Part shown: positions 10,937 to 25,982 of the stretch, piece by piece
How positions within the stretch are numbered: the first letter of the stretch is position 1
How the letters are laid out: the number at the start of each line of letters is the position of its first letter
Source: a virus
Taxonomy: Duplodnaviria > Caudoviricetes
Direction: 5' to 3' (one strand)
IMG/VR virus record: IMGVR_UViG_3300020159_003530
Coordinates: 1-29,403 of that record
DNA: 29,403 nt
Notes under the pieces: generated by a model
What the model saw: only the letters and a program-made list of their open reading frames with translations
What the model was told of the DNA's origin: nothing
The model's database searches: none
Translations under genes and position numbers: made by a program

Positions 10937-10992
10937 CGCGATCCAAGCATTCCACCGAGAAGGATTATGAAGGCAAGTGTTGTAATTGTCAT
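10933..10992 (-). CDS. 19-aa hydrophobic micropeptide MTITTLAFIILLGGMLGSR
   Basis: Exactly fills the gap between 10994..11269 and 10703..10936; resembles 21295..21354. Confidence 0.55.
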   Translation of the reverse strand: MTITTLAFIILLGGMLGSR

Positions 10993-10993
10993 G

Positions 10994-11269
10994 TTAGTTA
11001 CTTTCTACTGTGTCGTCAGCAATGATCTGGCGAATCATGATGTAAGGAAATGAAACCCAGTCTGCGTCGCGCGTATCAATTTTAAAAGGATGACGCATGC
11101 GAGGGTTGCGGAAAATTCCATGCGTTAGATCTTGTATGTCAAGAGACTTGCCGCTAAATAAAGCACGAAAGTTCTCGCCACTTTTCATCGTGACGAGAAC
11201 TTCGTGTCCTACAAGCTTTTCAGCTTCGGTGCGTGTCAGGTTTTTCACGCCTGGCCAGCGGACCAGCAT
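10994..11269 (-). CDS. hypothetical protein
   Basis: 91-aa ORF in a packed minus-strand operon. Confidence 0.65.
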   Translation of the reverse strand: MLVRWPGVKNLTRTEAEKLVGHEVLVTMKSGENFRALFSGKSLDIQDLTHGIFRNPRMRHPFKIDTRDADWVSFPYIMIRQIIADDTVESN

Positions 11270-11784
11270 TCAACAAGTTGTTTGGTGCTTAATGATTTGG
11301 CGAGTTTTCCCCATTCAACTTCAACCCACTTAAGCTGCGCGCCCTGTAAACGCATTTGGCCGGCAGCAAAGTACCAGCGGAAGACGTCTGTATCTTCACC
11401 GCGCCATTCAATCCATGATTCGTCCTTAACCCAAGGCGAGATGGCGCAGAAGAAAAGGTCCTCTTGGCCTTGCTTGTTGTTGTAAACGAGATCAACCAGA
11501 TTGCCATCGTCGTCATATGTTGGACTAAACCCGAGCTCCATCAACATTTGATGGAATGTTGCAATTTCCTTCGGATAGTTTGCGTCCATCCAGGAAAACC
11601 AGCGCGCTGGATGATAATCCATATGCTCAGGCCGAGGATCATCAGAGCTGATGTCTTCTCCCCAGCCGCCACCGCGCTTCAGGTGATCGTAATCATTAAG
11701 CTTGCACATTGCTTTGTAGCAGCTTTGGAAGTCTTCCTTCTTGATGAAGAATTCTGATGCCTCGGTGCGAACGTAGTACCCCAT
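11245..11784 (-). CDS. conserved phage hypothetical protein (Trp/Asp-rich)
   Basis: GAGG RBS; TGATG coupling with the upstream gene. Confidence 0.8.
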   Translation of the reverse strand: MGYYVRTEASEFFIKKEDFQSCYKAMCKLNDYDHLKRGGGWGEDISSDDPRPEHMDYHPARWFSWMDANYPKEIATFHQMLMELGFSPTYDDDGNLVDLVYNNKQGQEDLFFCAISPWVKDESWIEWRGEDTDVFRWYFAAGQMRLQGAQLKWVEVEWGKLAKSLSTKQLVECWSAGQA

Positions 11785-12095
11785 CAGTTCACCTCTGCAA
11801 GTTGATTGATGCGCGACTGAGTAAATTCCTTGTGATCCTGCATGACATAGTCAACAATTTGTGTGTTGGCCTCTGCCATCTTGCCTGCGAAATCCCAAAG
11901 TTCGCTGATGTCGTGGAAGGTGAAGGAGATTGAGGAACCGGATGCGTACGATCCGTCCTTATCGCTACTCCACTTGATCTCAATGGTGTAAAACCAGGGC
12001 GGGCCCTGCTTCCCCTCATCGCTTTCGTGGTAGTAGGTACGGAAACTTACCTCTGGCTTATATACGTGAGCCGCACGGATATCGGTTGTTGACAC
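11784..12095 (-). CDS. hypothetical protein
   Basis: GTG start with an AGGAGG RBS downstream of a strong promoter. Confidence 0.8.
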   Translation of the reverse strand: MSTTDIRAAHVYKPEVSFRTYYHESDEGKQGPPWFYTIEIKWSSDKDGSYASGSSISFTFHDISELWDFAGKMAEANTQIVDYVMQDHKEFTQSRINQLAEVN

Positions 12096-12132
12096 TTTTG
12101 CCTCCTAGGCGTAGTGGTTAATAGGTGTTTTT

Positions 12133-12161
12133 AATATAGCCACTAACCGCACGACTGTCAA
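12133..12161 (-). promoter_or_regulatory. SigA-type promoter TTGACA-N17-TATATT
   Basis: Near-consensus boxes with exact spacing. Confidence 0.8.
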
Positions 12162-12170
12162 CCTATCCAG

Positions 12171-12638
12171 CTATTTTTTTTCTGCTTCCCGGTCGGCCTT
12201 TGGGTCGCGAACCTCGTAGAGGCCATGCTTGATTTTGCGAAAGAGATCTGGCCTGTCTGTGATCAGCTTAAGAGCCGTCGGATAAGAAACTTCTCCGAGC
12301 TCCGCGATCTCAGCAGCTGTTACCTGGGCGAAAACATTATCTTGGCACCACGCGTAGATAGCCCCGTATTTGTCGGAACGACGAACTTTTTTATCTGCTT
12401 CTACCTGGACGAATCCAAATATGTCTGCTGCGACCATTGCGTCAATCGAGTAATGATAAACAAGCTCTTTAACGGAAAGAGTAGGATTTGTAATTGCGCA
12501 CATACGCGCGCGATCGCGCTCTGTAAGTTTCTCTCTAAGATGTTTGGGAATACCAAATACACTCCCATACTCTTTTGATGCTTTTGCCCAATCTTCTTTG
12601 CCGAGCGCGCACGCTTCTTCGTAAGTGAAATAACTCAT
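12171..12638 (-). CDS. hypothetical protein with a C-terminal winged-HTH-like region
   Basis: VTAAEIAELGEVSYPTALKLI...FRKIKHGLYEV. Confidence 0.7.
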   Translation of the reverse strand: MSYFTYEEACALGKEDWAKASKEYGSVFGIPKHLREKLTERDRARMCAITNPTLSVKELVYHYSIDAMVAADIFGFVQVEADKKVRRSDKYGAIYAWCQDNVFAQVTAAEIAELGEVSYPTALKLITDRPDLFRKIKHGLYEVRDPKADREAEKK

Positions 12639-12686
12639 TGTTGGAATTCTACCAATCAAGCAGGCGTGCTTCAAAATCTTTATACA

Positions 12687-12857
12687 TCACAAGCCTTCCT
12701 TCATGTCAATAACTTTCGCGCCCATTTCAACAAGTGTCTTAGCGCAACTAAAGCAAAACCAACCGGCTCCAGAAAGGGTCATGTTGGGAGTATAAAAAAC
12801 CCTGTAGAAGCCTTCGCCGCGACAGGGGGCGCCGAGACCTTGGCAGTCCACGATCAT
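12687..12857 (-). CDS. 56-aa Cys4 microprotein (paralog B)
   Basis: MIVDCQGLGAPCRGEGFYRVFYTPNMTLSGAGWFCFSCAKTLVEMGAKVIDMKEGL; ATGA overlap with paralog A. Confidence 0.7.
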   Translation of the reverse strand: MIVDCQGLGAPCRGEGFYRVFYTPNMTLSGAGWFCFSCAKTLVEMGAKVIDMKEGL

Positions 12858-13018
12858 GATGACACCTTCACTCCAAAAATTTCAGCACCATAGTTCTTAA
12901 GGATCTGGATGCAGTTGGAACAAAGCCAGCAGCACCCGGCATCTGAAAGATCAGGCATGAGGTAGGAAGCGTAAACAACATCTTCGCTACATGGTCCGTA
13001 AAAACCTTGGCACCCCAT
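12854..13018 (-). CDS. 54-aa Cys-rich microprotein (paralog A)
   Basis: MGCQGFYGPCSEDVVYASYLMPDLSDAGCCWLCSNCIQILKNYGAEIFGVKVSS; TGATG overlap with 13018..13221. Confidence 0.7.
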   Translation of the reverse strand: MGCQGFYGPCSEDVVYASYLMPDLSDAGCCWLCSNCIQILKNYGAEIFGVKVSS

Positions 13019-13221
13019 CAGATACCCACCGCCTCAAGAAACTTACTGCGATCAAAACGTGGATTGTCACGCTTCATTGCATCGCACATGCATTCAACAG
13101 CGATTTGAAAAGCTGTGCGTTGATCGCTATCACTATCTCCCTTGGATACGATGAGATCATCCAGGTTGCGAAGAGTGATTGCCAATTCCTCCGCCAAGCG
13201 CTTGTAGTCCTTACGGGTCAT
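13018..13221 (-). CDS. conserved small phage protein (MTRKDY...NPRFD..KF family)
   Basis: Recognisable terminal motifs; AAGGAGG RBS. Confidence 0.8.
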   Translation of the reverse strand: MTRKDYKRLAEELAITLRNLDDLIVSKGDSDSDQRTAFQIAVECMCDAMKRDNPRFDRSKFLEAVGI

Positions 13222-13246
13222 AATTCCTCCTTGATTGGTTATGCGT

Positions 13247-13275
13247 ATTCTAAACAGCCATCAAGAAAAAGTCAA
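13247..13275 (-). promoter_or_regulatory. SigA-type promoter TTGACT-N17-TAGAAT
   Basis: Read directly. Confidence 0.8.
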
Positions 13276-13448
13276 CTACTTAAAAGGCTAAATTTCTACG
13301 AGTGGCCATGGCCGGGCAAATAAAAAAGAATTCTCCGGCAGCTCATCCGCCACCGTCATAAAAAAGACGCATCTCAACGGGGCTTCGGACGCGCAGCTAC
13401 ACGCGATGTATGCCTGGTAGTCCCGTTAGCTGTAGTAAAGTACCACTC

Positions 13449-13826
13449 ATGAACATTACAAAAAGATGGGACAAAAAAGTCCGAGCACTCGAGGAATATG
13501 TGAAGCTAAATGGAACAGCTCTCGTCCCGGCAACTGCAAAGATAGAAATTGACGGGACTGTTATGAGCTTAGGGCCATGGGTTTGCGCTACTCGAGCTGC
13601 ATACCACAGAGGCGACCTCATGCCTCACAGAATTACTCAGCTTGAATCTTTTCCTGGATGGAACTGGGGGCCGCTTAAGCCAGGAAGAAAAGTTTCTCCG
13701 AAGCGCGATCAGGAAATTGTTCAGGCGCGCGAATCGGGATTGAAGCTTGAGCAGATTGCTGAACAACATAATCTGTCGCGCCAGCGAGTTCATCAGATCG
13801 TGAAGAGGTCAAAAATAAATGCCTAG
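13449..13826 (+). CDS. helicase-associated (HA) domain fused to a sigma70-region-4-like HTH
   Basis: WD....L.EY...NG...VP...LG.WV...R..Y..G.L...RI..LE; C-terminal LEQIAEQHNLSRQRVHQI. TAAAGT lies 7 nt before the ATG (leaderless). Confidence 0.8.
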   Translation: MNITKRWDKKVRALEEYVKLNGTALVPATAKIEIDGTVMSLGPWVCATRAAYHRGDLMPHRITQLESFPGWNWGPLKPGRKVSPKRDQEIVQARESGLKLEQIAEQHNLSRQRVHQIVKRSKINA

Positions 13827-14073
13827 AGAGTTCAGCCGAAGCAATTGGCCACAGGAAGAAGAAACTGACGATAAGCAAATAAGAACCTGGACTGCGTTTT
13901 TTACTTTTGCTTGGGGATCACTGTTTTTAACAGCTTCATTTTGGCTGACATTCTGGGTTCTTGAATCAGAGGGCGTGATTGATTGGATGATTCCGTGGTG
14001 GAAGTGCGGAATACTTTCGTATTGCTTTTTGATCATTTTTGGAATGACGCGAATCGGTAAACGACAGCAATAA
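13819..14073 (+). CDS. small two-TM membrane protein
   Basis: Two hydrophobic aromatic-rich segments; overlaps the previous stop. Confidence 0.7.
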   Translation: MPREFSRSNWPQEEETDDKQIRTWTAFFTFAWGSLFLTASFWLTFWVLESEGVIDWMIPWWKCGILSYCFLIIFGMTRIGKRQQ

Positions 14074-14117
14074 AAAAAGCCAGCGCCTCGGTAAGAAAGG
14101 AAACCGAGACGCTGGCT
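14072..14117 (-). terminator. intrinsic terminator between convergent genes
   Basis: AGCCAGCG.CTCGGT/ACCGAG.CGCTGGCT stem; A7 on the + strand gives a U-tail on the - strand. Confidence 0.75.
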
Positions 14118-14182
14118 AGCGTCGTGCAGCAGGGCAAGGAGGTGGAGTCCCCGCGCACAGAGCGCCGTACCTAGTCTAATGA

Positions 14183-14593
14183 CTAGGCAACAGCGGTGAC
14201 GGAAGTCGTCTGCGAGGCCTCCACAGCCTGCGCAACACGGATCTGCGAGTAATCGCTGTAATCCGTGCATGCTTCCGCAATATCTGTTGGCAGAGAACCA
14301 AGCTTCACGGCCGCCTTGAACTTCTCTCCATCAACGACACTCTTGATAAGCGTCTTGAAGAGGTTTGGCTTGATCATTTGCTTCAGCTTCTCAATGTCGT
14401 AGGACGCACGACGTCCTTCAACGATAGAAACCTTAACGCCGTCAACAACAACAGAAGTAGTCATTCCGTTTGCCATTGCGAGACGCATTGCGTTCTCTGC
14501 TTTTTTAAGAGCGTCTTCAGCTTCAGACTTTGCCTCGCGAGCTGCGAGATAGTCGGAAACCGTCTTGCTCATTTGTCCTGCGCTTGCTTTCAT
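14183..14593 (-). CDS. hypothetical phage protein with an N-terminal coiled coil
   Basis: AAGGAGG RBS, own promoter and terminator. Confidence 0.8.
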   Translation of the reverse strand: MKASAGQMSKTVSDYLAAREAKSEAEDALKKAENAMRLAMANGMTTSVVVDGVKVSIVEGRRASYDIEKLKQMIKPNLFKTLIKSVVDGEKFKAAVKLGSLPTDIAEACTDYSDYSQIRVAQAVEASQTTSVTAVA

Positions 14594-14622
14594 TTTATTC
14601 CTCCTTAGTAAGTAGTTTGAGT

Positions 14623-14682
14623 GTGGGATCGTCCAGTTCCGATCCCACGAATGTGGTTTTTGGTGCGGGATGAACTGGCACC
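14623..14682 (-). ncRNA. candidate structured 5' leader: two hairpins with complementary loops
   Basis: Minus strand GGTGC-CAGTTCATCCC-GCACC and GTGGGATCG-GAACTGGA-CGATCCCAC; loops CAGTTC and GAACTG can pair. Confidence 0.5.
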
Positions 14683-14724
14683 CCTTGACCTAGTAGCACT
14701 ATATCCCCCCTTATGTTGTAGCTT

Positions 14725-14753
14725 AATTTACCTGAGACTAAATAGAAAGTCAA
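14725..14753 (-). promoter_or_regulatory. SigA-type promoter TTGACT-N17-TAAATT
   Basis: Read directly. Confidence 0.7.
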
Positions 14754-14756
14754 CCC

Positions 14757-15008
14757 CTAAGAGATAATTTCCCAAGAATCTTCTTCAGGGACGAGGCCAA
14801 GGCTTGAACCGTCATCCCAAGTGACATGAACGGTGCCATGATCATCAATAAGATTGATTGTTCCTTCTGCTCCCGGCAAGAGCTTCGTAAATTTATCAGT
14901 CGTTTTCGTGAGACGAATGCGCCTCCCAACGAGAACTTTGTTGAGGCTTTCTTGAATGACGCGAATTAAAAGTGACATATCGTCGTTGAGGTCGTTGTTA
15001 GTAGTCAT
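14757..15008 (-). CDS. DUF4314 domain protein
   Basis: GRRIRL..TTD....L.PGAEGTI..IDDHGTVHVTWDDGSSLGLVP.ED; leaderless after TTGACA-N17-TTTGAT (15043-15015). Confidence 0.85.
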   Translation of the reverse strand: MTTNNDLNDDMSLLIRVIQESLNKVLVGRRIRLTKTTDKFTKLLPGAEGTINLIDDHGTVHVTWDDGSSLGLVPEEDSWEIIS

Positions 15009-15184
15009 AAAGACATCAAAGCAGCTGGAATAGAAAATGTCAACCCGTGTCAACAATAAATATAAAACTGCAGAGCTTCGCCGGCTGAGAAAAAAGAAGA
15101 TCATCCGCCACCGTTAAAAAAAGAAGAACGCCGCCAACGGGACTCCGGAGTGCTTCTTCGTGCAGCTGCATAATCTTGGGCAAT

Positions 15185-15226
15185 AAAAAAGGGCGTCTGA
15201 CGGAAATGATCCGCCGGACGCCCTTT
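15185..15226 (-). terminator. intrinsic terminator
   Basis: AAAGGGCGTC...GACGCCCTTT stem with A6 on the + strand, downstream of 15238..15672. Confidence 0.75.
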
Positions 15227-15237
15227 GGGGTGGTTTT

Positions 15238-15672
15238 TTATGCGCAGAGGCTATGTGCGAGACCGCTCATTTCGTTCGCGAGTGCGCCACGGGCTTCACC
15301 TTCATCAGTGAAATGCGAGCCATCAGCGAAATGGATCACAGTAGCCGATGTTTGACGGGTGAATACCGTAATCAGCGTCACGCGAGAGCGTTCAGGACTT
15401 TCGCTCGCTGGTGTAGAAGGCTCGTCTTCGCCTGCTTTAAGCGGAGCTGCCCATCCCCCCGTCAATGCGCCCACGGCCGCGTAACCGTTATTCACAGCGT
15501 GCGACTCTTGCGCTTGTTCAATGGCGTCGTAAATGTCCAGAGATGAGCTGAGGACGGAGATGCCTTCGTCGCTAACCCCGAAAATGATTGCCTCCGGGAG
15601 TTTCTTTTCAGGATCAAGCGTTGCTTGCCCGAAGTGGTCAGAGGCCTTAAAAGCCAAGTCCAGTGTTTTCAT
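15238..15672 (-). CDS. hypothetical protein
   Basis: GAAAGG RBS, own promoter and terminator. Confidence 0.8.
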   Translation of the reverse strand: MKTLDLAFKASDHFGQATLDPEKKLPEAIIFGVSDEGISVLSSSLDIYDAIEQAQESHAVNNGYAAVGALTGGWAAPLKAGEDEPSTPASESPERSRVTLITVFTRQTSATVIHFADGSHFTDEGEARGALANEMSGLAHSLCA

Positions 15673-15701
15673 ATTAGCCTTTCTTATTGGGAACAGAGCA
15701 G

Positions 15702-15763
15702 ATCATAGCAATCTAAAAATGCTTTGTCAAACTATTGCATTTCTTTTTTATTAGGCATATACT
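15702..15763. promoter_or_regulatory. back-to-back SigA promoters: (-) TTGACA-N17-TATGAT at 15730-15702 and (+) TTGCAT-N17-TATACT at 15735-15763
   Basis: Read directly between divergent genes. Confidence 0.75.
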
Positions 15764-15787
15764 GGCCTCCCAATAGAAAGGAACAAA

Positions 15788-16321
15788 ATGGGATTAGACA
15801 ATATGCCAAACAAGTACCCGTGCAAGACACGGGGTACGGCGATTATGGAACCACGTGTAAGCCAAAAGACTGGCGAAGTCCTGCTTGACGAGGATGGCCA
15901 GCCAGCGATGACGATTGACTGCCAAGCAACACAAGCATTTGGCGGATGCCCGTATCAAAACGCATTCGCCAAGTCCGGGATTACCGAGGGTCGCGTTTAC
16001 GGGATGTTTGGTACGGATTGCTGGTATCGCGGTAAGTACGGCAACGCAATCGTGGCCGCGGCTTCGCACAACAATATGGATGACGAGTTCACGTTCTACG
16101 GCGACAATGAGGATTCAACTCATAAGTCAGCCGAGTCCTGCACTCAACTGGCCGACTTCATCAAGGTTGTTACGGCCTCTTATGAAAATGAAGACATTGT
16201 CGCAGATGCTAAAGAAGAGTTTGCTGAAGACAAGGCCGATATTCTGAATGGCCTCCGCTACGCTGAGTGGTATCTTCGCTGGGCAGCTGAAGAGTGTGAC
16301 GGATTGGTGTGCTGGTACTAA
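15788..16321 (+). CDS. phage hypothetical protein (MGLD...YRGK family, Cys-rich insert)
   Basis: GAAAGGA RBS; 177 aa. Confidence 0.8.
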   Translation: MGLDNMPNKYPCKTRGTAIMEPRVSQKTGEVLLDEDGQPAMTIDCQATQAFGGCPYQNAFAKSGITEGRVYGMFGTDCWYRGKYGNAIVAAASHNNMDDEFTFYGDNEDSTHKSAESCTQLADFIKVVTASYENEDIVADAKEEFAEDKADILNGLRYAEWYLRWAAEECDGLVCWY

Positions 16322-16584
16322 TGAAAATGAAGTTTTACGCCGATGATCAAGAAAAAGAAGTGATTGAAGTCGCTGAACTTATTCTTGAAGAATATTTTGG
16401 ACTTGGAACCACTGGCGCAGATGCCATCGTGGACTGTCTTCGCGATCTCGTGAGCGGTCAGATGAATGTCTCAGAGTGGGAAACAGACGACGACACGGTT
16501 TTCCGCGCTGTCGCGATGATCGGGATGAAGCTGCAAGAGGAAAACAAGCTGCATCAAATGATCGTCCCCCTCCCGGTCGTATAA
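16321..16584 (+). CDS. acidic hypothetical protein
   Basis: TAATG coupling with the previous gene. Confidence 0.7.
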   Translation: MKMKFYADDQEKEVIEVAELILEEYFGLGTTGADAIVDCLRDLVSGQMNVSEWETDDDTVFRAVAMIGMKLQEENKLHQMIVPLPVV

Positions 16585-16764
16585 AAAAGGATCATCCACC
16601 ACCGTAAAGGAGGTGGGTGTCCTTAGTCCCGTTGTCCGTTGTCCTGCTGCCTCATACTCAGCGGGACTTCGGAGGCTGGGTTTGAGTGTTTGCGCTTAGC
16701 TAACTCAGGACGATTGTCTCGGTAAGTAATAGACTTGACGGGACTCTGGCGCTAGACTGTCGCG

Positions 16765-16959
16765 ATGGCGTTGTTTGCGTGCAAAGTGTGTGGCATTGAG
16801 CTGCATAAAGACACGCCAGGCGTCAGCCGGTATGTCAGGGGTTGGCAAAAAAACGGATCTACAGCCGTGGCCTACACTGAAGAACTCTTTGAATATGCGC
16901 ATACCGTGTGTCTGAGTACACGAAAAAGCCCTAACGCCCAAGCTGATCGCTTGTTCTAG
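16765..16959 (+). CDS. small Zn-finger-like protein (CKVC...HTVC)
   Basis: TAGACT -10 box 6 nt before the ATG (leaderless). Confidence 0.65.
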   Translation: MALFACKVCGIELHKDTPGVSRYVRGWQKNGSTAVAYTEELFEYAHTVCLSTRKSPNAQADRLF

Positions 16960-17038
16960 GCGCTAGGGCTTAATCGGTTGTGTGGCTGTCAGCCGGCCAA
17001 GAGAAAAGCAAGCACAAGTACCAAGAAAACGGTACCCA

Positions 17039-17467
17039 TTAGAGGCCCAAGCGTTCTACCTCGGCCTCGCTAACGGGCCAAAGCTGCGAGGCTCCACCCA
17101 TACTGTCGTGGTGACTGAGAGAGTAAGAAACATGATCGGCTTGCACGTTGTAGCGCAACGTCCAGCTTGAATCTACTGTCATGCCACGGAGAATGTCAAC
17201 TACCTTCTCGGCGTGGAAATAGCCGCTCACGGTACGATTCCAAAGGTTGAGATCCTTGACATGCCACCATCCAGTCTCATTTGACTCACGGAGTGTCTTG
17301 GTGTCTTCGCTGAACAAGTCAACGACGAACTCCCAGCAATCGCCGTAGCAATCATCGGCCGGCTCATCGGTGAACTCTTCTTTAATTGCGTCGTACTTAG
17401 TGCAGGTGCAGTCGTTTGATACCTCCGACTGCCAAAGGTTGAGATGATCCCCGAAGAGAATGGTCAT
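17039..17467 (-). CDS. hypothetical protein (CxC...CxxxC)
   Basis: GAAAGGA RBS. Confidence 0.8.
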   Translation of the reverse strand: MTILFGDHLNLWQSEVSNDCTCTKYDAIKEEFTDEPADDCYGDCWEFVVDLFSEDTKTLRESNETGWWHVKDLNLWNRTVSGYFHAEKVVDILRGMTVDSSWTLRYNVQADHVSYSLSHHDSMGGASQLWPVSEAEVERLGL

Positions 17468-17479
17468 TTTTATTCCTTT

Positions 17480-17788
17480 CTATTTATTGGTAGAGAAATT
17501 TGAATAGTATGCAATATGGTCATGAAGTGCGCCAGTATCACGCCAGTCGGGCAGGTTGTCGGTAATCCATTCGCGAGCAACGGACACAAGGCCTTCAACC
17601 GTGATAGTCGGAGCGCTTGTTTCATAATCCCAAACATTTACGCAGTCAAAAGCCTGGTCTGGAACATCCCCAATCGCGATGTCTACGTATGCGCCGCCAT
17701 GCCAGGTGAAAATGAATCCGTCAATGGCCAGCTGAAAATATTCATTGCCCGTATCTGGGTCAGAGAGAGTCTTAATCTTGTTATGCAT
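17480..17788 (-). CDS. hypothetical protein
   Basis: ATG 17788 lies 7 nt after TATTAT (leaderless). Confidence 0.7.
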   Translation of the reverse strand: MHNKIKTLSDPDTGNEYFQLAIDGFIFTWHGGAYVDIAIGDVPDQAFDCVNVWDYETSAPTITVEGLVSVAREWITDNLPDWRDTGALHDHIAYYSNFSTNK

Positions 17789-18671
17789 ACGCAATATAAT
17801 ATCTAGGGCTATTTAATAATGCAACTCTTTTGATGAATATCTCGACTGGCCCAGATGATTAGATCGCAAGCCCGGCCAGCAGCTGAAGAAAAAGAACCCC
17901 GGCCGGCAGAAAAAGAAAAACAATCTCGACTGGCCGTCATCCGCCACCGTCAAAAGAAGAAGACAGCTCGACAGTCCCGTCTTCCCCCTGGACGAAGGAA
18001 CGGGGCTCTGGCCCAGGCTGTTTAATTCTGTGAGAAAACTAGCTCTTCGCGTTCGAGAAGCTGACCTGGGGGCAAAAATTAGATTGCAATTGCTGCGCCT
18101 GGTGAAATGATTGCAATTTTCGAGCAAACTGGGGGCCAGGAATTGCATTTTGGGCAGAGCTTCGCTGCAAATGTGTGTAGTTGCCGGCAATATTACTGTG
18201 AAAAAACGAAAACAACAACCTTGTAGCTTGGAAAAAACATATGCACGTGGCCGTGCATGTTAAAAAAATGCAACCCAGATGACGTATTGCGGGCGATGCG
18301 CTCGGTAGTCCCGTATGTTTTATCTTTGTTCTGCCGGGCCCAGACGCGTTGGAATAAGTAAGTACCTTCTTGGCGACTTTGATTGTTTTGATGCGTGCTG
18401 AAACCCTTGCAGAATAAGGACTTCAAAAAACTCGCTTTTCCAGTAAAATTTTTGACTTTTGAAAACTGACTTCACCACCCCTGGGTAAAGAAAAAACAAA
18501 CTGCCGCTGCCTGGCGCTGTGGAAAAACTCCGATGTCGCGCTGAACTCATCCGCCGCCGTCACAAAAAAGACGGATGGTGGCCAGCCCCGTTGTGTTTGT
18601 TTTGTGCAGCTGTGCAAACTGATTAGCCGGGAGAAGACGGGACTCTTTAGCAAGGCGAAGTCACATCATTC

Positions 18672-18726
18672 TCTGCCGGAGGCGAAGCATCAGAAGCGGA
18701 GCGGATGTAGCGGTGCCGTCGGCAGA
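18672..18726. repeat. structured motif H1, copy 1 (stem-GA-GG..AAGC...TGTAGCG..CC-GT-stem)
   Basis: TCTGCCG/CGGCAGA outer stem and GGC/GCC inner stem. Confidence 0.75.
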
Positions 18727-18768
18727 TAATGGGTGCGGAGCCACTAGTGGCGTTTTGCGGGTCTACTT

Positions 18769-18833
18769 GGGACTAGCGAGTCATATATTACAACAAGGCA
18801 CTTGTTGAAGTATATGCGAGCGGGGCTAAGACC
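18769..18833. repeat. 65-bp repeat H2, copy 1, with a GCA-triloop hairpin
   Basis: Near-identical to 20672-20736. Confidence 0.9.
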
Positions 18834-18885
18834 CTAGAAATGCGAGATATTAGATAGCTGCTTTAAGTGGTGAAGCGTCAGCTTT

Positions 18886-19110
18886 CTAGTAGAGACCGAA
18901 CGCCTGACCTTCTTTGTCTAATCCAAACAACGCACCTGCGTCGTTTCCTTCTGTGTCCATTGAAGGATACAAAATTGTTCCGCTTGACAAAACTAAACAA
19001 CTTGGGATTTCGTTTTTACGCCAACCCTCGTTGTTCATTTCCTCTTGTGTCATCGGACGTATAGCAACGATTGTTGCGCCAATAATGCCTGCGTCTATTG
19101 CATTACTCAT
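18886..19110 (-). CDS. conserved phage hypothetical protein
   Basis: IVAIRPMT.EE...EGW...YPSMD.EGN.AGALF; AAGGAG RBS. Confidence 0.8.
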   Translation of the reverse strand: MSNAIDAGIIGATIVAIRPMTQEEMNNEGWRKNEIPSCLVLSSGTILYPSMDTEGNDAGALFGLDKEGQAFGLY

Positions 19111-19295
19111 GTTGTCTCCTTGTCGTCGTATGGCTCATTGAATTCTTCTGCAAGTGGCTTATTGAATTCGTCTGCAAAGATACACGCGTAAACGAGCGCA
19201 CCCCCGATATATACGAATGCGCACACAAGCGCAATAACGCTATGATTCACGACATCCCCCTCAAGCCGCCAAGATAATTCCGATAAGAATTGCAA
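19107..19295 (-). CDS. small membrane protein
   Basis: One TM segment; ATGA overlap with the next gene; start uncertain. Confidence 0.5.
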   Translation of the reverse strand: MQFLSELSWRLEGDVVNHSVIALVCAFVYIGGALVYACIFADEFNKPLAEEFNEPYDDKETT

Positions 19296-19307
19296 AAAGT
19301 ACAGTGA

Positions 19308-19823
19308 TCACCAGATCTTAAACCCTCCGCTATGGCGCAAAAAGAGCGCAAATTCCTGGACGTTCTCAACCGAGAAAGGGTAGTTGGATTCAAACGAATC
19401 AACGACGCCCTCGCCATGGCAACCATTACAAAAACCATGCGTGCGTCCAAGTACCAAAGAAGTTGCCTCATCAAGTTCACGATCATGAAAGCCATGTTCA
19501 AGACCAACAGCGTCAGTGCGAATACCAGTTGCACCGCAATATGTACAGTCCTTGCGAGGAAGGTTTGCAATGCGCTCACGGTAGTCCTCTTCGTGTGACT
19601 TAGTAACACCAAGTTCAATCTCACGAAACAGGATGTCAGCAAGTTGGCTAGCCCCTTCAGCGTTGAGTCCATCTCCGTCATTGAAGTGACCGTCCACATC
19701 AGAACAGAGTTCTGGAGCTGCCGTTTCGCAATAGTCCCACAACGGGCGCCACCACCAAACATTGTTCCTGAAGTACTCACCACACTTTTCCGTGGGGTTC
19801 CTTCCGATTACATCCATACCCAT
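19308..19823 (-). CDS. phage protein (MGMD...YFRNNVWWW family) with a DnaJ-like CxxCxxxG Zn finger
   Basis: CTYCGATG and CNGCHGEG; AAAGGAGG RBS. Confidence 0.8.
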   Translation of the reverse strand: MGMDVIGRNPTEKCGEYFRNNVWWWRPLWDYCETAAPELCSDVDGHFNDGDGLNAEGASQLADILFREIELGVTKSHEEDYRERIANLPRKDCTYCGATGIRTDAVGLEHGFHDRELDEATSLVLGRTHGFCNGCHGEGVVDSFESNYPFSVENVQEFALFLRHSGGFKIW

Positions 19824-19850
19824 AATGCCTCCTTTGTTCGGGTAATGAAG

Positions 19851-19879
19851 ATCATAAAAGCTTTAAATAAAAAAAGCAA
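19851..19879 (-). promoter_or_regulatory. SigA-type promoter TTGCTT-N17-TATGAT
   Basis: Read directly. Confidence 0.65.
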
Positions 19880-19898
19880 CCCAGAGAAAAACTAAAAA

Positions 19899-20324
19899 CT
19901 ACGAGACTGGCCAAAAGTATGGGAGATCATCCTCCACCAACCAATTCCACTGGCCGTAGAAAGCCCGATCTTTACGAAGAAGATTGCTTTGGTGGCTTAG
20001 ATGTACTCGCGAATCTCCCCACCAGGCCGGCAAATCATCAAATTCCGGGCGCGAGACGGCAAGCAGCTTTTCTCTACATGTGTCTTTGTAGCCCCGCCCA
20101 ACCCATTCATCGCAGATTGCAACTCCGTAAGCGATCAGGCCGCCGAGATTGTTTTGCCACATCTTTGTAGCTGGGTGGTTTCGCCATCCATGATTTCTTC
20201 TTCCGGCGACCGGGACAAGCGCTTGAACAATTTGAAGCGTTTCAACTCTTTGTTTTCCGAGGCGCTGGCGGTCAAGAACTCGAGCGCACTGGTCAAAGTG
20301 CTCATAAGGTACGAATGTCTGCAT
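19899..20324 (-). CDS. pyrimidine-dimer DNA glycosylase / endonuclease V-like (MSMEG_6728 family)
   Basis: MQTFVPY...LD..RLGKQRVE..QI, HPATKMW, EW..RGY.D and H.SHQSNLLRKD; GGAGG RBS. Confidence 0.9.
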   Translation of the reverse strand: MQTFVPYEHFDQCARVLDRQRLGKQRVETLQIVQALVPVAGRRNHGWRNHPATKMWQNNLGGLIAYGVAICDEWVGRGYKDTCREKLLAVSRPEFDDLPAWWGDSRVHLSHQSNLLRKDRAFYGQWNWLVEDDLPYFWPVS

Positions 20325-20343
20325 TAGTAAATCCTCCGCAGCT

Positions 20344-20372
20344 ATCATCCACCACCGTAATAATAATGTCAA
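20344..20372 (-). promoter_or_regulatory. promoter TTGACA-N17-GATGAT overlapping a 14-mer repeat copy
   Basis: The repeat at 20345-20358 covers the spacer and -10 box. Confidence 0.55.
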
Positions 20373-20671
20373 CCTGTGACGGGGCTCTTGACCCAGGATG
20401 GCCAGATCAACTCGAAATACCTGCAGCTGCTGAAAAAACGTTCCGCCAGGGAGGCCGGCAGCTGGAAAAAAGAGTTTTATCCTCTCGAGCAGCTCGGATC
20501 TGGCTCTCGAAGGAAAAGTTTTTAACTTTGCACGCGCGCGACCCAGGTAAAGCCGATAACACGAAGCTGGAATGGCCTTGTAGGCATCGTTAGCCCCGTC
20601 TTCGGCTATTACGAAGTATTAGTGATCACCAGGCAGCGCATCAATCTGGAGCTATCTATAAATGACCATGC

Positions 20672-20736
20672 GGGACTCGCGAGTCATATATTGCAACGAG
20701 GCACTTGTTGCGATATATGCGAGCGAGGCTAAGACC
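20672..20736. repeat. 65-bp repeat H2, copy 2
   Basis: CATATATTGCAACGAG-GCA-CTTGTTGCGATATATG hairpin. Confidence 0.9.
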
Positions 20737-20770
20737 TTGCCTGTGTTACGGGATTAGTTCATATCTTTTT

Positions 20771-20835
20771 TACCAGAGGTCAGAAGCGTAAGTAGTGAAG
20801 CACAGCGTAACGGATGTAGCGGTTGACCGTTGGGA
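20771..20835. repeat. structured motif H1, copy 2
   Basis: CCA-GA-GGTCA...TGTAGCG..TGACC-GT-TGG. Confidence 0.75.
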
Positions 20836-20979
20836 ACAAAGAATGACTAAGCCTTCATAAGTTGTTTAGTGAATCATTACGGGACTCATGACCTTCAAAC
20901 AGTTAAACCACATGTCAAACCAGCCCGAGCCTCGAGTTCAGAAATACAAAGCCCTCGTATTTAGAAAAACATTTAAAAG

Positions 20980-21008
20980 TTGACAACAGGAGCCGGCGCA
21001 AGTATATT
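20980..21008 (+). promoter_or_regulatory. SigA-type promoter TTGACA-N17-TATATT
   Basis: Near consensus; drives the whiB-DUF3846-helicase operon. Confidence 0.8.
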
Positions 21009-21037
21009 GATTGAACCTACTAACTAAGGAGCTATAT

Positions 21038-21295
21038 ATGACCTGGCGTCTCGACCGTAACTGCGAAGACAAAGATGTTTCATTTTTCTTTCCGTCCGAC
21101 CGTGGAGGAGTAAAGCGCGCAATCACAGTTTGCAGTGAGTGCAATGTAAGGGCCGAATGTCTTGAATTCGCAATCTGCAATCAAATCACCGACGGTATTT
21201 GGGGTGGAACAACGGAAACGTCTCGTATCAAGCTGATTCGTGAGCGCTTTGGCCGCCTTGGTAATGTTGATTTCAACTACATGGCGGTTAAGTGA
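21038..21295 (+). CDS. whiB: WhiB-family transcription factor
   Basis: W....NC...D..FFFP, CSEC..C and GIWGG; AAGGAG RBS. Confidence 0.92.
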   Translation: MTWRLDRNCEDKDVSFFFPSDRGGVKRAITVCSECNVRAECLEFAICNQITDGIWGGTTETSRIKLIRERFGRLGNVDFNYMAVK

Positions 21296-21354
21296 TGAGC
21301 ATGATTAGCTTGATCTTTGTTGTAGTGCTTGGTGCATTTTTTGGAGCGCAATAA
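21295..21354 (+). CDS. 19-aa hydrophobic micropeptide MSMISLIFVVVLGAFFGAQ
   Basis: TGATG and TAATG overlaps on both sides. Confidence 0.6.
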   Translation: MSMISLIFVVVLGAFFGAQ

Positions 21355-21719
21355 TGTTTGTGACTGGTCTTTATATTGACGGTAACCGCATCACTCGCGT
21401 GCAGGTGGATACAAATAGCAACTCATCAATCTCGGGCATGATTGACGGAGACATTGATGCTGTCACAAGGAAAACTCAAGATGGGCAAATGTTTTCAGTC
21501 TTCGTTAACGACATTGGTCTTTTTAGTAATTTTGAGATGAATCCAATTGCTTCAATCATTGCCGGCAGTTACCTTGTTGGGCCAGCCGTAATAACAGGAA
21601 CCGCGCTGAACGGAGAAACAATTTCAGTACCGCTTTCAGTTATTGCGCACGCAACGCAAATTCTTGAGACCATGGCTCTTCATCAGGCCTTTGGTTCTTC
21701 AGATCAGCTGCCTGTATGA
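21354..21719 (+). CDS. DUF3846-like protein
   Basis: IDG.IDAV, FVND.GL, N.IAS and LVGPAVITG...GE pattern. Confidence 0.75.
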   Translation: MFVTGLYIDGNRITRVQVDTNSNSSISGMIDGDIDAVTRKTQDGQMFSVFVNDIGLFSNFEMNPIASIIAGSYLVGPAVITGTALNGETISVPLSVIAHATQILETMALHQAFGSSDQLPV

Positions 21720-21738
21720 ACGATTGCAACCATCAGTG

Positions 21739-23748
21739 ATGAGATACGACGCATCTGCAGGAAATTTATTCTTCCTCAAAGACATGCTTGTTTTTGAGTT
21801 TGAATATAACGCTGAGCTCGTAGACGAAGTTCGCCGTATACCTGGAGCAAAGTACGATAATAAGTTTAAAGTTTGGCGAGTTCCAGCTACGCAGATAGAT
21901 GCTTCTAGAAGAATTGCGCAAAGGCACAACCTCTTCATGGAGCCAAGCGTCGCTAGATTTGAAGTTCCACGGACAGAGAATGAGTTTATCGGACTGAAGA
22001 GGGATGGAGAATGGGTTTATCTCGGCTTTCTTTACGACCAAGTTAAGGTCAGAAAAGTAAAACAACTTCCTGGCGTTACGTGGCATTCAAAGTCCAAGGC
22101 GTGGAGGGTTCCGGTGACCGCCATCGCAGAAGCTGTTGCATGGGCTGACAATTTTGGTGTACCTGTTGATGATGATGTGCGTGCCGAGGCCGAGGAATTC
22201 ATCCAAAATAGGCGTAAAAAAAACGAAGCATCACGGTCTGTAGACGCCGATGTGAATATACCAAACATGGTTGGAGACCTTTTGCCGTACCAGCGGGCTG
22301 GTGTTGCATACGCAGTTGATGCACGCAGGTGTTTTATCGCTGACGATATGGGTCTCGGCAAAACTGTGCAAGCTCTCGCTGCATTAGAATTTGCTTCCCA
22401 GACAAGCTCAGTATTTCCAGCAGTTGTAATTTGCCCACCAAGCCTGGTGCTTAACTGGAAAAAAGAGATCAACAGATGGTTTCCGCACCGAAGCGTAGAG
22501 GTTGTTACAAACCGACGCAATTTCCCTGGCTCATCCGCCGCCGTCAATTCTAGTGCTAAGAATTACGGGGCTTCTGACTACCTGGTTGTTGGTTATTCAA
22601 ACATTTCCCACTGGGAACAGCTGCTGCTCGGTTTCAACGCGTACGTGTTTGACGAGTCGCATTACGTAAAGACCCCAACAGCACAGAGGACAAAGTCAGC
22701 AATCAAACTTGCCAAGTCATGTCCGAAAACTGGAATGGTTTTGTGCCTGACCGGAACTCCAATCACAAACCGTCCTGCAGAGTATGCATCACAACTGGAA
22801 ATCATTGGTCGGCTCAACTCGCTCGGTGGAAAGTGGGGCTTCTACAGGCGCTACTGCGGTGCTTATCAAGACAAGTGGAAAGTGTGGCACACTGACGGCG
22901 CCACGAATCTTGACGAACTCAACGACACTCTTCGCTCGGTCTGCTATATCCGTCGGACAAAGACACAAGTACTTGACGAGCTCCCAGATGTCAGACATGC
23001 TCCTATTGTTGTTGACGGGACTGCCAGGATCATGCGTGAATACAAGGAAGCTCAAGACGACATTATTGACTACCTGGTCAAGCGCGCTGCAGAGATTGCT
23101 CGCGAGCTCGGAAAATCACCTGGATCCGCAGCTGTTCGCGCCAGGATGAAAGCTGAAGCAAACCAACACCTGGTAAGACTTGCGGTGCTTCGCCGGATTG
23201 CCGCACGTGCAAAAATGGACGCGGTCACCGAATGGGTTGAATCGCGGATCACCGGCGGGCAAAAGGTTGTTATTGCAGCTCACCACCGGGAAATCGTTGA
23301 TGAACTTACGAACAGGTTCGGTGGCCTGAAGATTCAGGGTGGGATGGACGTGTCAGACGTTGAGGAGAACAAGCGCCTTTTCCAGGAAGGTGATGTCACC
23401 GAAGCCCCGTGTATCGTGCTTTCCATCCAAGCAGCTAAGACTGGACACACGCTCACGGCAGCACAAGAAGTTTTGTTCGTTGAGTTACCCTGGACGCCAG
23501 CCGACGTGGATCAGACATACAGTCGTTGCCACAGATTAGGGCAAAAGGGTTCAGTAACTGCAACATATATGATTACCGAAGGTACCGTTGATGAAGAGAT
23601 CTATGAGTTGATCCAAGCAAAGCGCTCAATCATTGACGCAGCTACCGAAGGAACTGAACTTGACGAAGAAGCATCTGGTTCACAGATCGTGATGCGACTG
23701 CTTGAGGCGGGACTTCAGTCCAAGGCTGTCCGCACCTCTAGCAAATAG
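21739..23748 (+). CDS. SNF2-family helicase with two N-terminal HARP-like domains (SMARCAL1-like)
   Basis: ADDMGLGKT, DESH, LTGTP and R.HRLGQ motifs; two F.Y....V..V..LPG..(Y/W)....K.WRVP repeats. Start uncertain. Confidence 0.92.
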   Translation: MRYDASAGNLFFLKDMLVFEFEYNAELVDEVRRIPGAKYDNKFKVWRVPATQIDASRRIAQRHNLFMEPSVARFEVPRTENEFIGLKRDGEWVYLGFLYDQVKVRKVKQLPGVTWHSKSKAWRVPVTAIAEAVAWADNFGVPVDDDVRAEAEEFIQNRRKKNEASRSVDADVNIPNMVGDLLPYQRAGVAYAVDARRCFIADDMGLGKTVQALAALEFASQTSSVFPAVVICPPSLVLNWKKEINRWFPHRSVEVVTNRRNFPGSSAAVNSSAKNYGASDYLVVGYSNISHWEQLLLGFNAYVFDESHYVKTPTAQRTKSAIKLAKSCPKTGMVLCLTGTPITNRPAEYASQLEIIGRLNSLGGKWGFYRRYCGAYQDKWKVWHTDGATNLDELNDTLRSVCYIRRTKTQVLDELPDVRHAPIVVDGTARIMREYKEAQDDIIDYLVKRAAEIARELGKSPGSAAVRARMKAEANQHLVRLAVLRRIAARAKMDAVTEWVESRITGGQKVVIAAHHREIVDELTNRFGGLKIQGGMDVSDVEENKRLFQEGDVTEAPCIVLSIQAAKTGHTLTAAQEVLFVELPWTPADVDQTYSRCHRLGQKGSVTATYMITEGTVDEEIYELIQAKRSIIDAATEGTELDEEASGSQIVMRLLEAGLQSKAVRTSSK

Positions 23749-23945
23749 GTTCCGTTGTCTTTCACCTCAAGCACAGCTGCACCCAGTTCTTCGAGTATCG
23801 CATCCGCAACATCTGCCATCTGCCGCTGGAGTTCGCGCAGTTCGTCTCCAGATACGGATCCAGCATCAGCCAGGTCGAGCAATATATCCGTAATGGTATT
23901 AACTAGCTCTACCCTGGCTTCGTAAATATTTGGCGTTTGGGGCAT
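23715..23945 (-). CDS. acidic hypothetical protein
   Basis: TAATGT 7 nt before the ATG (leaderless). Confidence 0.7.
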   Translation of the reverse strand: MPQTPNIYEARVELVNTITDILLDLADAGSVSGDELRELQRQMADVADAILEELGAAVLEVKDNGTYLLEVRTALD

Positions 23946-24014
23946 GACGTGTACATTAGCAGGTGCTATATTGCTTGACGCGGGAGTCCCGCAATCACGA
24001 AACGAGGTACGAAA

Positions 24015-24467
24015 ATGAGCAAGCCAGTTGCTACGGTAACCGGGAATCTTACGGCAGATCCCGAGATCCGCTTTTTTGATGGTGGAAGTGCGAAGGCATC
24101 TTTCAGTATCGCCGTAAACAGTCAGTGGAAAGATGCGTCAGGGCAAATGCAAGAGCGCACTTCCTACTTTGATGTCGTGGCATGGAAAGCCTTGGCGGAG
24201 GACATCGTGCGTGTCGCCACCAAGGGTGCGCGTGTCACCGTCACCGGCACACTTGAACAGCGTTCATGGGACGACAAAGCCAGTGGTCAGAAGCGCACCA
24301 AGGTGGAAATCGTTGCCGAAGAGGTGGCGGTTTCCGTGCGGAGCATTGAAGAGTTCACACGCAAACAGCGTGTAGAAGGTTCTGATGGAGCCACAAAGAA
24401 GCCTGTAAGGGGCCGTGGCCCAGCGGTTAATCGTCAGGATATCCCCGAGGACGAAGAGCCGTTCTGA
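24015..24467 (+). CDS. ssb: single-stranded DNA-binding protein
   Basis: GNLTADPEIRF, DVVAW..LAE and G.L.QRSWDD motifs; acidic EDEEPF tail. Confidence 0.95.
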   Translation: MSKPVATVTGNLTADPEIRFFDGGSAKASFSIAVNSQWKDASGQMQERTSYFDVVAWKALAEDIVRVATKGARVTVTGTLEQRSWDDKASGQKRTKVEIVAEEVAVSVRSIEEFTRKQRVEGSDGATKKPVRGRGPAVNRQDIPEDEEPF

Positions 24468-24486
24468 TTCTTCCTTGGGCAGGGAG

Positions 24487-24536
24487 AAAAAAGAAGACCC
24501 CACCGTGGAGGGCTACGGTGGGGTCTTTCTTATTTG
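24487..24536. terminator. bidirectional intrinsic terminator
   Basis: AAGACCCCACCGTGG/CTACGGTGGGGTCTT stem with an A-run on the left and a T-rich tract on the right, between convergent genes. Confidence 0.8.
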
Positions 24537-24580
24537 TTATGCGAGCAAGTAGCAAACGAGCAAAAGCAAACCGAGCGTTA

Positions 24581-24877
24581 TCACTTGTCGGTCGCCCAGT
24601 CCCACGAACCATCCATGGAAAGAACCATAATGGGGTCAAGGTTCCGACAGTTGTTCGGGTCGGTGTCGCCATGCACCCAGCGAAATGCAACCACATCCCA
24701 AGTAAAATCCTTGTTGATGACGAGGTCACATTTAGGCTTGGAGTTCTCTGCCAAAAGAGGAGAGTTCTGAAGCACCAAGTAGGTAGCAAGAGCCACCAAG
24801 GCACTCACGCCGAGCCAAAAGGCGATACGGACGGTAGAGCGAATAAGATAGTAAGCAGGGCTGTGATAGTAGGTCAT
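24581..24877 (-). CDS. membrane-anchored hypothetical protein
   Basis: N-terminal TM segment; TAATGT 7 nt before the ATG. Confidence 0.65.
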   Translation of the reverse strand: MTYYHSPAYYLIRSTVRIAFWLGVSALVALATYLVLQNSPLLAENSKPKCDLVINKDFTWDVVAFRWVHGDTDPNNCRNLDPIMVLSMDGSWDWATDK

Positions 24878-24900
24878 GCAAAATACATTAATGAAAGGGT

Positions 24901-25347
24901 GTGACAAGGTCAAGCATTGTTATGGAACCAGTGAACCGCAAGAAAGCACCCCAGCAAGAGATAGTTGAGATTAATAGGGTCGGCTCATGGGGGCGAGTCA
25001 CCTACCAGCACAAACTCTCCTGTGGCCACGTAGAGATCCGGAAGCGGCCCTCATCAGCCCCGAGAATCGCTTGTACGTGGTGTGTCCAGGCTGAACGCAA
25101 AGACGAGGAACTTAGGGCATTGGCGATCCGCGAACCAGAGTCGCTTGAGATCCCAGATGACGACATCAGGCCAGCGGGACTTGAGACAGCCGAAGGAGAA
25201 GCCGTAGCCATCAGAGCTGCAATCGTCCGGGTCTTGGGATGCGCAGCTGAAGCAGTTGACGTAGTTCTCGAAGACAACGATGGAACGCTTGAGGTGTCTG
25301 GAGCTATCGTTTTCCTGGACGCAATCCAGGCACGTAGCTATCTTTAG
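24901..25347 (+). CDS. hypothetical protein with an LSCGH...CxxC Zn motif
   Basis: 148-aa ORF; start is 24901 or 24922. Confidence 0.7.
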   Translation: MTRSSIVMEPVNRKKAPQQEIVEINRVGSWGRVTYQHKLSCGHVEIRKRPSSAPRIACTWCVQAERKDEELRALAIREPESLEIPDDDIRPAGLETAEGEAVAIRAAIVRVLGCAAEAVDVVLEDNDGTLEVSGAIVFLDAIQARSYL

Positions 25348-25389
25348 CTACGGGACTTGCTACCCGAGTAGCGAGTGGTCTTTCTGCGG

Positions 25390-25439
25390 TGCCAGAGGCT
25401 AAGCGTAAGTAGCAGCGCGTATGTAGCGAGCCGTTGGCA
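25390..25439. repeat. structured motif H1, copy 3
   Basis: TGCCA-GA-GGCT-AAGCG...TGTAGCG-AGCC-GT-TGGCA. Confidence 0.78.
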
Positions 25440-25577
25440 GAGCATAAAGGCACGAGCGGTAGTAACATTCTTGAGGAGTTATGAGTTATCACATTGATGG
25501 CACCGGCATCAATAGGGATGCGAATAACGATGTCTACACGGGACTGCTGAGCACTAGAGAAGCATTGTTGTCTTATA

Positions 25578-25647
25578 TGGATAAGAGGCAAAGCGTAAGT
25601 GTGCGTAGCGTATTTAGCGGAGCTACTGTAGCGATGCCGTTTATCCA
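25578..25647. repeat. structured motif H1, copy 4
   Basis: TGGATAA-GA-GGCA-AAGCG...TGTAGCG-A-TGCC-GT-TTATCCA. Confidence 0.78.
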
Positions 25648-25801
25648 GATAAGGAACATGCGTACCTAACAATGTGTATAGGACTCATTCATCTGTACCA
25701 CAAGCCTCTTGTGGGACTTGATGATGAGTACGAAGTCCGCACGGGACTGATGAGCCCTAGACCACCAAAAAAAGACGAAACTACGGAAAAATTTTAGAAA
25801 G

Positions 25802-25864
25802 TTATCCACAGCTTAAACCTTTGAAATATAAGGATATGAACAAAAAACGACAGCGTTATCCACA
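25802..25864 (+). promoter_or_regulatory. two perfect DnaA boxes TTATCCACA (25802 and 25856)
   Basis: Exact consensus, direct orientation, AT-rich spacer. Confidence 0.65.
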
Positions 25865-25982
25865 GAGTTCTACTTGATTTTTTCGTTCATAGGGTTAAAA
25901 TAGTCATGCACAGTTACTACATATGGCGAGCGCCTATACCTTCCAGCTCGTCGGCCCCATCCATCTCGAGAAGGAGAACCCT

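Follow-up and report, generated by a model that had tools for sequence, protein, structure and literature searches.

The window analyzed here, the 29,403 nt at positions 1 to 29,403 of the IMG/VR virus record IMGVR_UViG_3300020159_003530 (Duplodnaviria; Caudoviricetes), carries four copies of an element, H1, which is a real, non-coding and covarying hairpin family that forms on one strand of the likely early region in a narrow phage clade. We give about an even chance to the reading that H1 works as folded single-stranded DNA (ssDNA). The original prediction had placed four hairpins at 18672-18726, 20771-20835, 25390-25439 and 25578-25647; their stems and junction were confirmed on the + strand, and the full element, at 87–105 nt, reaches beyond these first extents. 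The copies are as follows.

18654..18742, + strand: H1 copy 1, with a basal GAA/GGA loop, bulged T and A, a variable helix, the GA/GT junction, a ladder and a GGA cap
20750..20854, + strand: H1 copy 2, with a three-rung ladder whose middle rung is GT:AC and a tip common to attC-like sites
25371..25457, + strand: H1 copy 3, with a two-rung ladder
25562..25661, + strand: H1 copy 4, with a three-rung ladder and a 14–15 nt unit that occurs twice relative to the relative G003

We compared 14 distinct variants from four genotypes, with four each from the window and G002 and three each from G001 and G003; identical copies from other records were entered once. A fifteenth variant, a fifth copy found in G003, lacks the junction and scores 37 bits with the covariance model. 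Counted from the junction, helix positions 1–7 were Watson-Crick paired in 86 of 98 cells, and positions 2, 3 and 5 were paired in all 14 variants with three to four pair types each. The junction-anchored pairing was reached by 0 of 100,000 arm permutations. Over the alignment, 92.3% of cells were paired, compared with 65.5% in shuffles and 29–51% when the partners were slid. Twelve of 14 stem pairs changed on both sides, and a double change was also found between close orthologues, where GGCT/AGCC became GTCT/AGAC. The earlier argument that covariation implies a function as a folded single strand is thus borne out by both the compensated pairs and the paired cells. In comparison with G003, the cores of window copies 3, 2 and 4 had 36/41, 49/55 and 35/56 identical letters, respectively, the low value of copy 4 reflecting its unit duplication, while only 5–7 of 12 letters were identical in the arms.

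The base of H1 is often a GNA/GNA or GA/GA loop. The lower 5' arm carries a bulged T in 9/14 variants (GA/GA takes its place in the four copy-3 variants, and one variant is ambiguous), above which 3–5 covarying pairs follow. A second conserved site, consisting of a bulged purine and then T-C opposite G-G (G-A in two variants), was present in 14/14 variants, compared with 40 of 2800 arm pairs when shuffled and 20 of 144 when mixed. From this site a helix of 10–14 nt with free letters leads to the GA/GT junction, an invariant G.T pair plus an A.G mismatch, which is followed by a 3–6 bp stem. Since the two fixed sites lie about one helical turn apart, they suggest a protein that reads both.

The tip is a ladder in which 2-bp helices alternate with purine-rich 3x3 or 7x7 loops, most of which start with G and end with A. 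Its rungs are real pairs, because GT:AC replaces GC:GC twice: once in copy 2, at the middle rung, and once in copy 1 of G002, at the outer rung. The 15 tip caps comprised seven GNA triloops, two ACA, three AGC and three 7-nt loops. The pattern GAGG-N2-4-AAGC-N10-40-TGTAGCG had four matches in the window and none in each of 100 shuffles. The loop that was described as beginning with AAGC and ending with TGTAGCG therefore holds for the window copies, but not as an invariant, as loops in relatives start with AAGT, GAGC or TAGC and end with TAACG or GAGCG.

The + strand folded better than its complement in 15/15 variants with both RNA and DNA parameters, and the terminal structure of the folding strand is 66% purine. 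For single copies with flanks the folding z was modest (RNA -1.2 to -2.6, DNA -1.1 to -1.6). As these energies are unremarkable, the case for H1 rests on covariation and comparison and not on stability.

A coding role was rejected: stops occur in all six frames across copies 3–4 in 3/3 relatives, and indels break the frame. The placement in gene-free islands thus held; the window has a 122-aa minus-strand open reading frame (ORF) spanning copies 3–4, which is not open in any of the three relatives.

The covariance model (R1) gave 15 matches of at least 37 bits in 81 sources, every one in the clade. Three complete distant relatives had no match at E<=1, and a fourth, a partial record, had a single match of 14 bits. 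A loose-pattern scan of 8 of 64 parts gave 120 loci, and H1 was not found outside the clade among them; of eight metagenome loci five were clade copies and three had no H1-like fold. Of 13 further loci, the seven outside the clade did not fold like H1; a candidate locus, L027, proved to be a tandem repeat. No H1 stood behind a 44%-identity relative of the gene that precedes copy 3, and BLAST against phages and plasmids returned short chance-level matches only. Rfam 15 gave no match over the H1 copies (two chance-level matches lay elsewhere in the window at E<=1), which agrees with the original view of an undescribed element. We found no description of H1 in open-access text searched with neighboring concepts, supplements aside. 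Weinberg 2017 (PMC5737381) names no such motif in the passages covered, and its supplements could bear on novelty. By these searches H1 appears to be an uncatalogued element.

We lean towards folded ssDNA because the copy-2 tip recurs in attC-like sites. Its pattern was found at 10 viral loci, four in the clade and six outside, and at two loci in prokaryote genomes. Seven of the eight outside loci resemble attC bottom strands (two are identical, and L124/L127 and L135 were so classed by eye); the eighth is chance-like and has no hairpin. An attC pattern of our own design caught the tip-bearing site in four of the six viral loci and other attC-like sites in all six. Among 14 attC-like sites, RC-GNA-RC occurred on the bottom strand in nine and on the top strand in none; when four sites picked by their tips were excluded, these counts were five and none of 10, with seven of the 10 from one Thiolapillus plasmid. 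Passages in PMC5027507 and PMC8946536 describe attC as acting in the form of folded ssDNA with a purine-rich tip, the GC-rich apical part of which governs opening by SSB, good extrusion being seen only for sites with short tips. In PMC13037366, as far as its text covers them, GCGNAGC mini-hairpins are extraordinarily stable in DNA, whereas a quoted RNA 8-mer counterpart is far weaker, and hairpins of this type occur at the phage G4 and RSF1010 priming sites and in N4 promoters. A DNA role is also favored by the placement of all copies on the + strand regardless of the direction of neighboring genes and by the lack of any promoter or U-tract common to the copies.

On this reading, the + strand, when left unpaired in replication, would fold into a rod and present the two fixed sites to a protein, most likely for loading a priming or helicase complex. 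The GNA cap would nucleate folding, sheared G.A pairs would zip the ladder on the + strand only, and the ladder may tune melting by SSB as reported for attC tips. H1 would be exposed as lagging-strand template or displaced strand and not as a cruciform, and its reader would be a candidate phage or host replication protein. That H1 is, specifically, a strand-specific ssi-type signal for loading or priming on ssDNA in replication is a tentative proposal that falls clearly short of an even chance. Cruciform extrusion as the main route was rejected, with a cost of 121–135 against a relief of 55–63 kcal/mol at sigma -0.06 and break-even only between -0.10 and -0.15, in a rough nearest-neighbor estimate with an assumed junction cost and sheared G.A pairs ignored. 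Because extrusion looks unaffordable, H1 could act as DNA only where the + strand is truly unpaired.

Several points weigh against this reading. The 14 variants are related, and the shuffle counts are not probabilities; with random orientation, four copies would share a strand by chance one time in eight. Four of the 14 attC-like sites were tip-picked and eight come from one plasmid, their attC status is given by our own pattern plus inspection by eye, and an integron integrase stands beside none (G017 has one, on another contig). An intact GNA or ANA tip cap is missing in 5/15 variants in the nested fold, or in six once every copy 3 and copy 4 in the three close genotypes is included. Protein-binding sites in RNA just as typically show invariant G.T wobbles and single bulges. 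Copies 3–4 lie on the sense strand just past a stop codon, the + strand gene 24901-25347 ending 24 nt before the start of copy 3, and a promoter-like site scoring 9/12 lies ~205 nt before copy 1. We know of no hairpin requirement in T7-type primases, and three complete distant relatives without H1 mean that it does not serve a universal replication need of the family.

An alternative is that the + strand is transcribed and that H1 copies are small structured RNAs, or RNA modules, whose bulge site and GA-rich loops bind a protein as a sponge, decoy or processing signal; we consider this as likely as the ssi-type signal, the best single mechanism. Covariation serves it equally, the invariant G.U pairs and bulges suit it (54 of 498 predicted pairs are G-U), and the unaffordable cruciform confines DNA folding to brief windows. 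The word CGGGRCT begins 41–47 nt before the junction in 10/10 variants of copies 1, 3 and 4, a spacing that is hard to account for (see below), and at 16–23 nt before the hairpin base it might aid transcription; copies 3–4, moreover, come after a + strand gene. On the other hand, none of the 15 tips has a GNRA or UNCG tetraloop, the tip is common to attC-like DNA hairpins, no TAnnnT hexamer within 90 nt upstream is kept across all orthologues, and a U-tract is absent at the base. Copy 1 is antisense to the leftward ORFs that flank it, copy 2 lies behind two divergent promoter-like sites, and CGGGRCT does not behave as a promoter box would, since it occurs within genes and on either strand. Likenesses to bacterial 5S loop E and the hammerhead were dropped on inspection.

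Unlikely, in our judgment, is a role of the folded ssDNA in recombination or defence, either as a domesticated attC-derived site for a recombinase or nuclease or as a decoy of a host hairpin sensor. In a post hoc test, the copy-2 flanks outside the search pattern, taken from the window, G001 and G002, resembled one attC-like family (L122, L125, L126 and L131) with z 2.9–5.5, while the two G003 variants gave a weak z of 0.0–2.5; the likeness allows descent from attC and also convergence. H1 also has two extrahelical bases on one arm, and copy 1 falls in a stretch in which the window and G002 differ. Virulent phages carry working attC sites, one of them with a Tetrasphaera host, as passages in PMC9892861 report. 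Against this role, the R box, the unpaired spacer and the attC bulge geometry are all absent, copies 2–4 bound no gene swap, and the searched records, among which those of the clade are 4–28% complete, yielded no match to a tyrosine recombinase, to a GIY-YIG nuclease or to a Y1 transposase. Still more doubtful is a scenario of a domesticated attC in a lytic actinophage with double-stranded DNA, which would have lost the recombination core, retained the SSB-tuning GNA ladder and gained the second bulge site, its same-strand copies restarting synthesis on a long displaced strand of the early segment, for instance when a terminal repeat is duplicated.

The attC-like sites were themselves found in varied surroundings. 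The Thiolapillus plasmid pTBH13 (NZ_AP012275.1, L156:6171-13352) has about a dozen mostly same-strand genes with eight attC-like sites and related tips, a cassette-like run with no annotated integrase. Runs of such sites also occur in L122, L124–L127 and L131, which are filed as viral, with an integron integrase absent beside them, and in G014 (41 kb, complete) attC-like sites adjoin an ordinary tyrosine integrase. Rfam gave 0 matches on L112, L122, L125 and L131, and a Klebsiella plasmid match to an attC-like query was discarded as lying inside a gene.

We regard as improbable a reading of H1 as a plain terminator or attenuator stem-loop from early cassettes of the PeSL type, with its tip as inherited baggage: each copy does lie ~95–420 nt behind the nearest promoter-like site in a region made of repeated promoter modules, and PeSL stem-loops are terminators in the account of PMC2839356, but H1 was not called terminator-like and lacks a U-tract, there is no + strand gene for copies 1 and 2 to end, and the tip, needless for a terminator, is conserved better than the stems (36/41 and 49/55 for the cores of copies 3 and 2 against 5–7/12 for the arms).

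If H1 acts as folded ssDNA, elaborate single-strand signals are maintained in several copies in the early region of a tailed phage, which would point to a regular single-stranded phase there and to a hairpin-reading protein, and the attC tip design would be reused outside integrons. If the domesticated-attC reading is true, H1 would represent a new class of ssDNA signals, carried within the double-stranded genome of a phage. If it acts as RNA, it would be an uncatalogued phage RNA family. H1 is short with clear conserved sites, its weight being limited by the narrow range of four genotypes.

Around the H1 copies lie the following signals.

18638..18644, + strand: CGGGACT, 41 nt before the copy 1 junction; a dispersed word, not specific to H1
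25351..25357, + strand: CGGGACT, 44 nt before the copy 3 junction
25539..25545, + strand: CGGGACT, 46 nt before the copy 4 junction
18546..18560, - strand: D1 motif, a likely leftward early promoter, with copy 1 behind it
20980..21008, + strand: sigma-70-type promoter-like site for whiB (11/12), downstream of copy 2, conserved in G003
25874..25901, + strand: promoter-like site for the SLT gene, downstream of copies 3–4, conserved in G003
18769..18833, + strand: H2a palindrome module, near-perfect, beside copy 1, with a GCA triloop; absent from G002
20672..20736, + strand: H2b palindrome module, near-perfect, before copy 2; covaries

As first reported, CGGGACT precedes three copies, starting 34, 39 and 39 nt before copies 1, 3 and 4, respectively. 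Its status as a part of H1 was not upheld: the degenerate form CGGGRCT occurs 32 times in the window on both strands, also inside genes and all in 10016-25742, and the exact word occurs 19 times compared with 2.3 expected. RCGGGRCT exceeded its control in four of five distant relatives (in the fifth, G009, the counts were 15 and 15, all 15 within one 28-kb stretch), and in distant relatives of 138–151 kb CGGGRCT marks a ~28-kb stretch around SSB. Because it is enriched in distant relatives without H1, the word is family-wide and not part of H1; it is likely to be an operator. In the distant relative G007, an island (L136:8440-8930) has about eight CGGGRCT sites with short hairpins between them and no H1 ladder.

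The D1 motif (TCCRCCRCCGT on the + strand) has 11 copies at 8801-22544 of the window in a single orientation, with CGGGRCT 33–39 nt off in nine; the helicase gene contains one of the copies, which is kept in G001–G003. We take D1 as a likely leftward early promoter. The conserved promoter-like sites lie downstream of H1. The H2b triloop is GCA or GTA in three genotypes and CCC in G003. H3, a third long imperfect hairpin with a 3-nt loop at ~25676-25745, has compensatory changes in G003, and A-tract runs beside each island (18420-18530, 20420-20530 and 25760-25850), noted by eye, suggest bent DNA. GYAGCTRC, an 8-bp palindrome, and its variants often adjoin CGGGRCT at 10–24 kb of the window, with no clear confinement to a segment in 2-kb bin counts. 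Two perfect DnaA boxes (25802-25810 and 25856-25864) stand past the last CGGGRCT and are kept in G001 and G003; in G011, 12 DnaA boxes recur near D1 modules. As an origin signal these boxes were considered weak, given their recurrence with promoter modules in G011 and a GC skew that tracks gene direction. An analogy to the T5 injection stop, as far as it is covered in 10.1101/866236, was set aside with only two DnaA boxes and no sign of genome ends.

The window comes from an uncultured and probably large tailed phage that encodes tail, holin and endolysin functions along with two WhiB proteins, an SNF2 helicase and SSB, and its gene content makes actinobacteria the likely host. Close relatives of ~40 kb have completeness ratings of 27–28%, so that the genome is probably near 150 kb. 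Numerous small leftward ORFs without known function at ~8–20 kb have what is likely the usual look of a phage early region. A primase-helicase gene lies ~4.7 kb past copy 4 in one close relative, which is in keeping with a priming role of H1, and a strong, two-way terminator-like hairpin (24493-24528) follows the SSB gene. Two genes near H1 are context:

21643..23748, + strand: SNF2-type helicase gene, family-wide and not specific to H1
24015..24467, + strand: SSB gene, family-wide and not specific to H1

The original prediction had attached meaning to the neighborhood of SSB and an annealing helicase. Among the 74 SSB loci checked, H1 was found in the close clade only, and since the ranges of the SSB relatives (these 74 loci) and of the helicase family (1213 proteins, of which P0002–P0004 are 81–88% identical) far exceed that of H1, their nearness says little.

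Among known systems, attC shares several features with H1: a one-strand fold, a purine-rich tip, sequence-free stems, extrahelical bases, the tip of copy 2 and a GA-GGT...TTGACC frame similar to the attC L box. H1, however, has no AAC/GTT R box at its base, where the letters below the junction are free in the 14 variants, and no unpaired 5/6-nt spacer, but one A.G mismatch and a G.T pair followed by helix. The extrahelical bases of attC lie on the L'' arm near the L box, whereas those of H1 bulge from the 5' arm, 3–4 bp apart and 10–14 nt below the junction, and the G that is extrahelical in attC-like sites is paired in copy 2. Our attC pattern found none of the four window copies, no gene-cassette array was seen at H1, and PF00589 was unmatched in G001, G002 and G007–G009 (clade records at most 28% complete). 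With the R box, spacer and attC bulge geometry absent, H1 is not an attC.

Origins of the ssoA type are, like H1, long imperfect hairpins that act on one strand. They carry a CS-6 box, TAGCG(T/A), in an unpaired loop and an RS-B box in the lower stem, and belong to rolling-circle replicons. The link to CS-6 that the original prediction drew is not sustained, as only 7/14 variants retain a terminal TAGCG(T/A), whose GC forms a ladder rung that pairs and covaries; no sign of a conjugative or rolling-circle setting was seen, and the annotated proteins included no rolling-circle Rep. Frpo and the ssi plasmid ssDNA promoters are likewise long imperfect hairpins among early genes on one strand, with -35/-10 hexamers in paired stems according to the text of PMC11541004; no such letters are conserved in the stems of H1, which argues against the proposed ssDNA promoter.

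The telomere palindromes of Streptomyces, bound by Tap, resemble H1 as actinobacterial ssDNA hairpins with GCA loops, sheared G.A closure and a replication-protein reader (PMC4513846, in part), but H1 is internal to contigs and spread over 7 kb, and no terminal-protein system was seen. The Ssn/NTS system pairs a sequence-conserved palindrome with a small GIY-YIG gene, as parts of PMC11893778 describe, whereas H1 stems vary freely; PF01541 (GIY-YIG) had no match in five records, and PF01797 (the Y1 HUH transposase of IS200/IS605 or REP) had none in five partial clade records. In the PeSL cassettes of T4-type phages, stem-loops likewise occur close to early promoters that recur within a variable gene region, but these are simple terminator stems beside a promoter, at least in the account of PMC2839356, while H1 has a complex tip and two internal sites.

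Besides the attC bottom strand, the closest functional parallels are mini-hairpin priming sites. Those of the phage G4 origin and RSF1010 ssiA, together with the N4 promoters, share with H1 GC-GNA-GC caps, a function as folded ssDNA and a link to SSB (PMC13037366, in the part that treats them). The N4 promoter has a 5-bp stem with a GGA/GAA cap and is used by the virion RNA polymerase; H1 carries the cap in some copies, on a 2-bp rung, and no RNA polymerase was present among the annotated proteins of the partial records. All of these are short, perfect hairpins with a known enzyme, whereas H1 is a mismatch-rich rod of 87–105 nt in a tailed phage.

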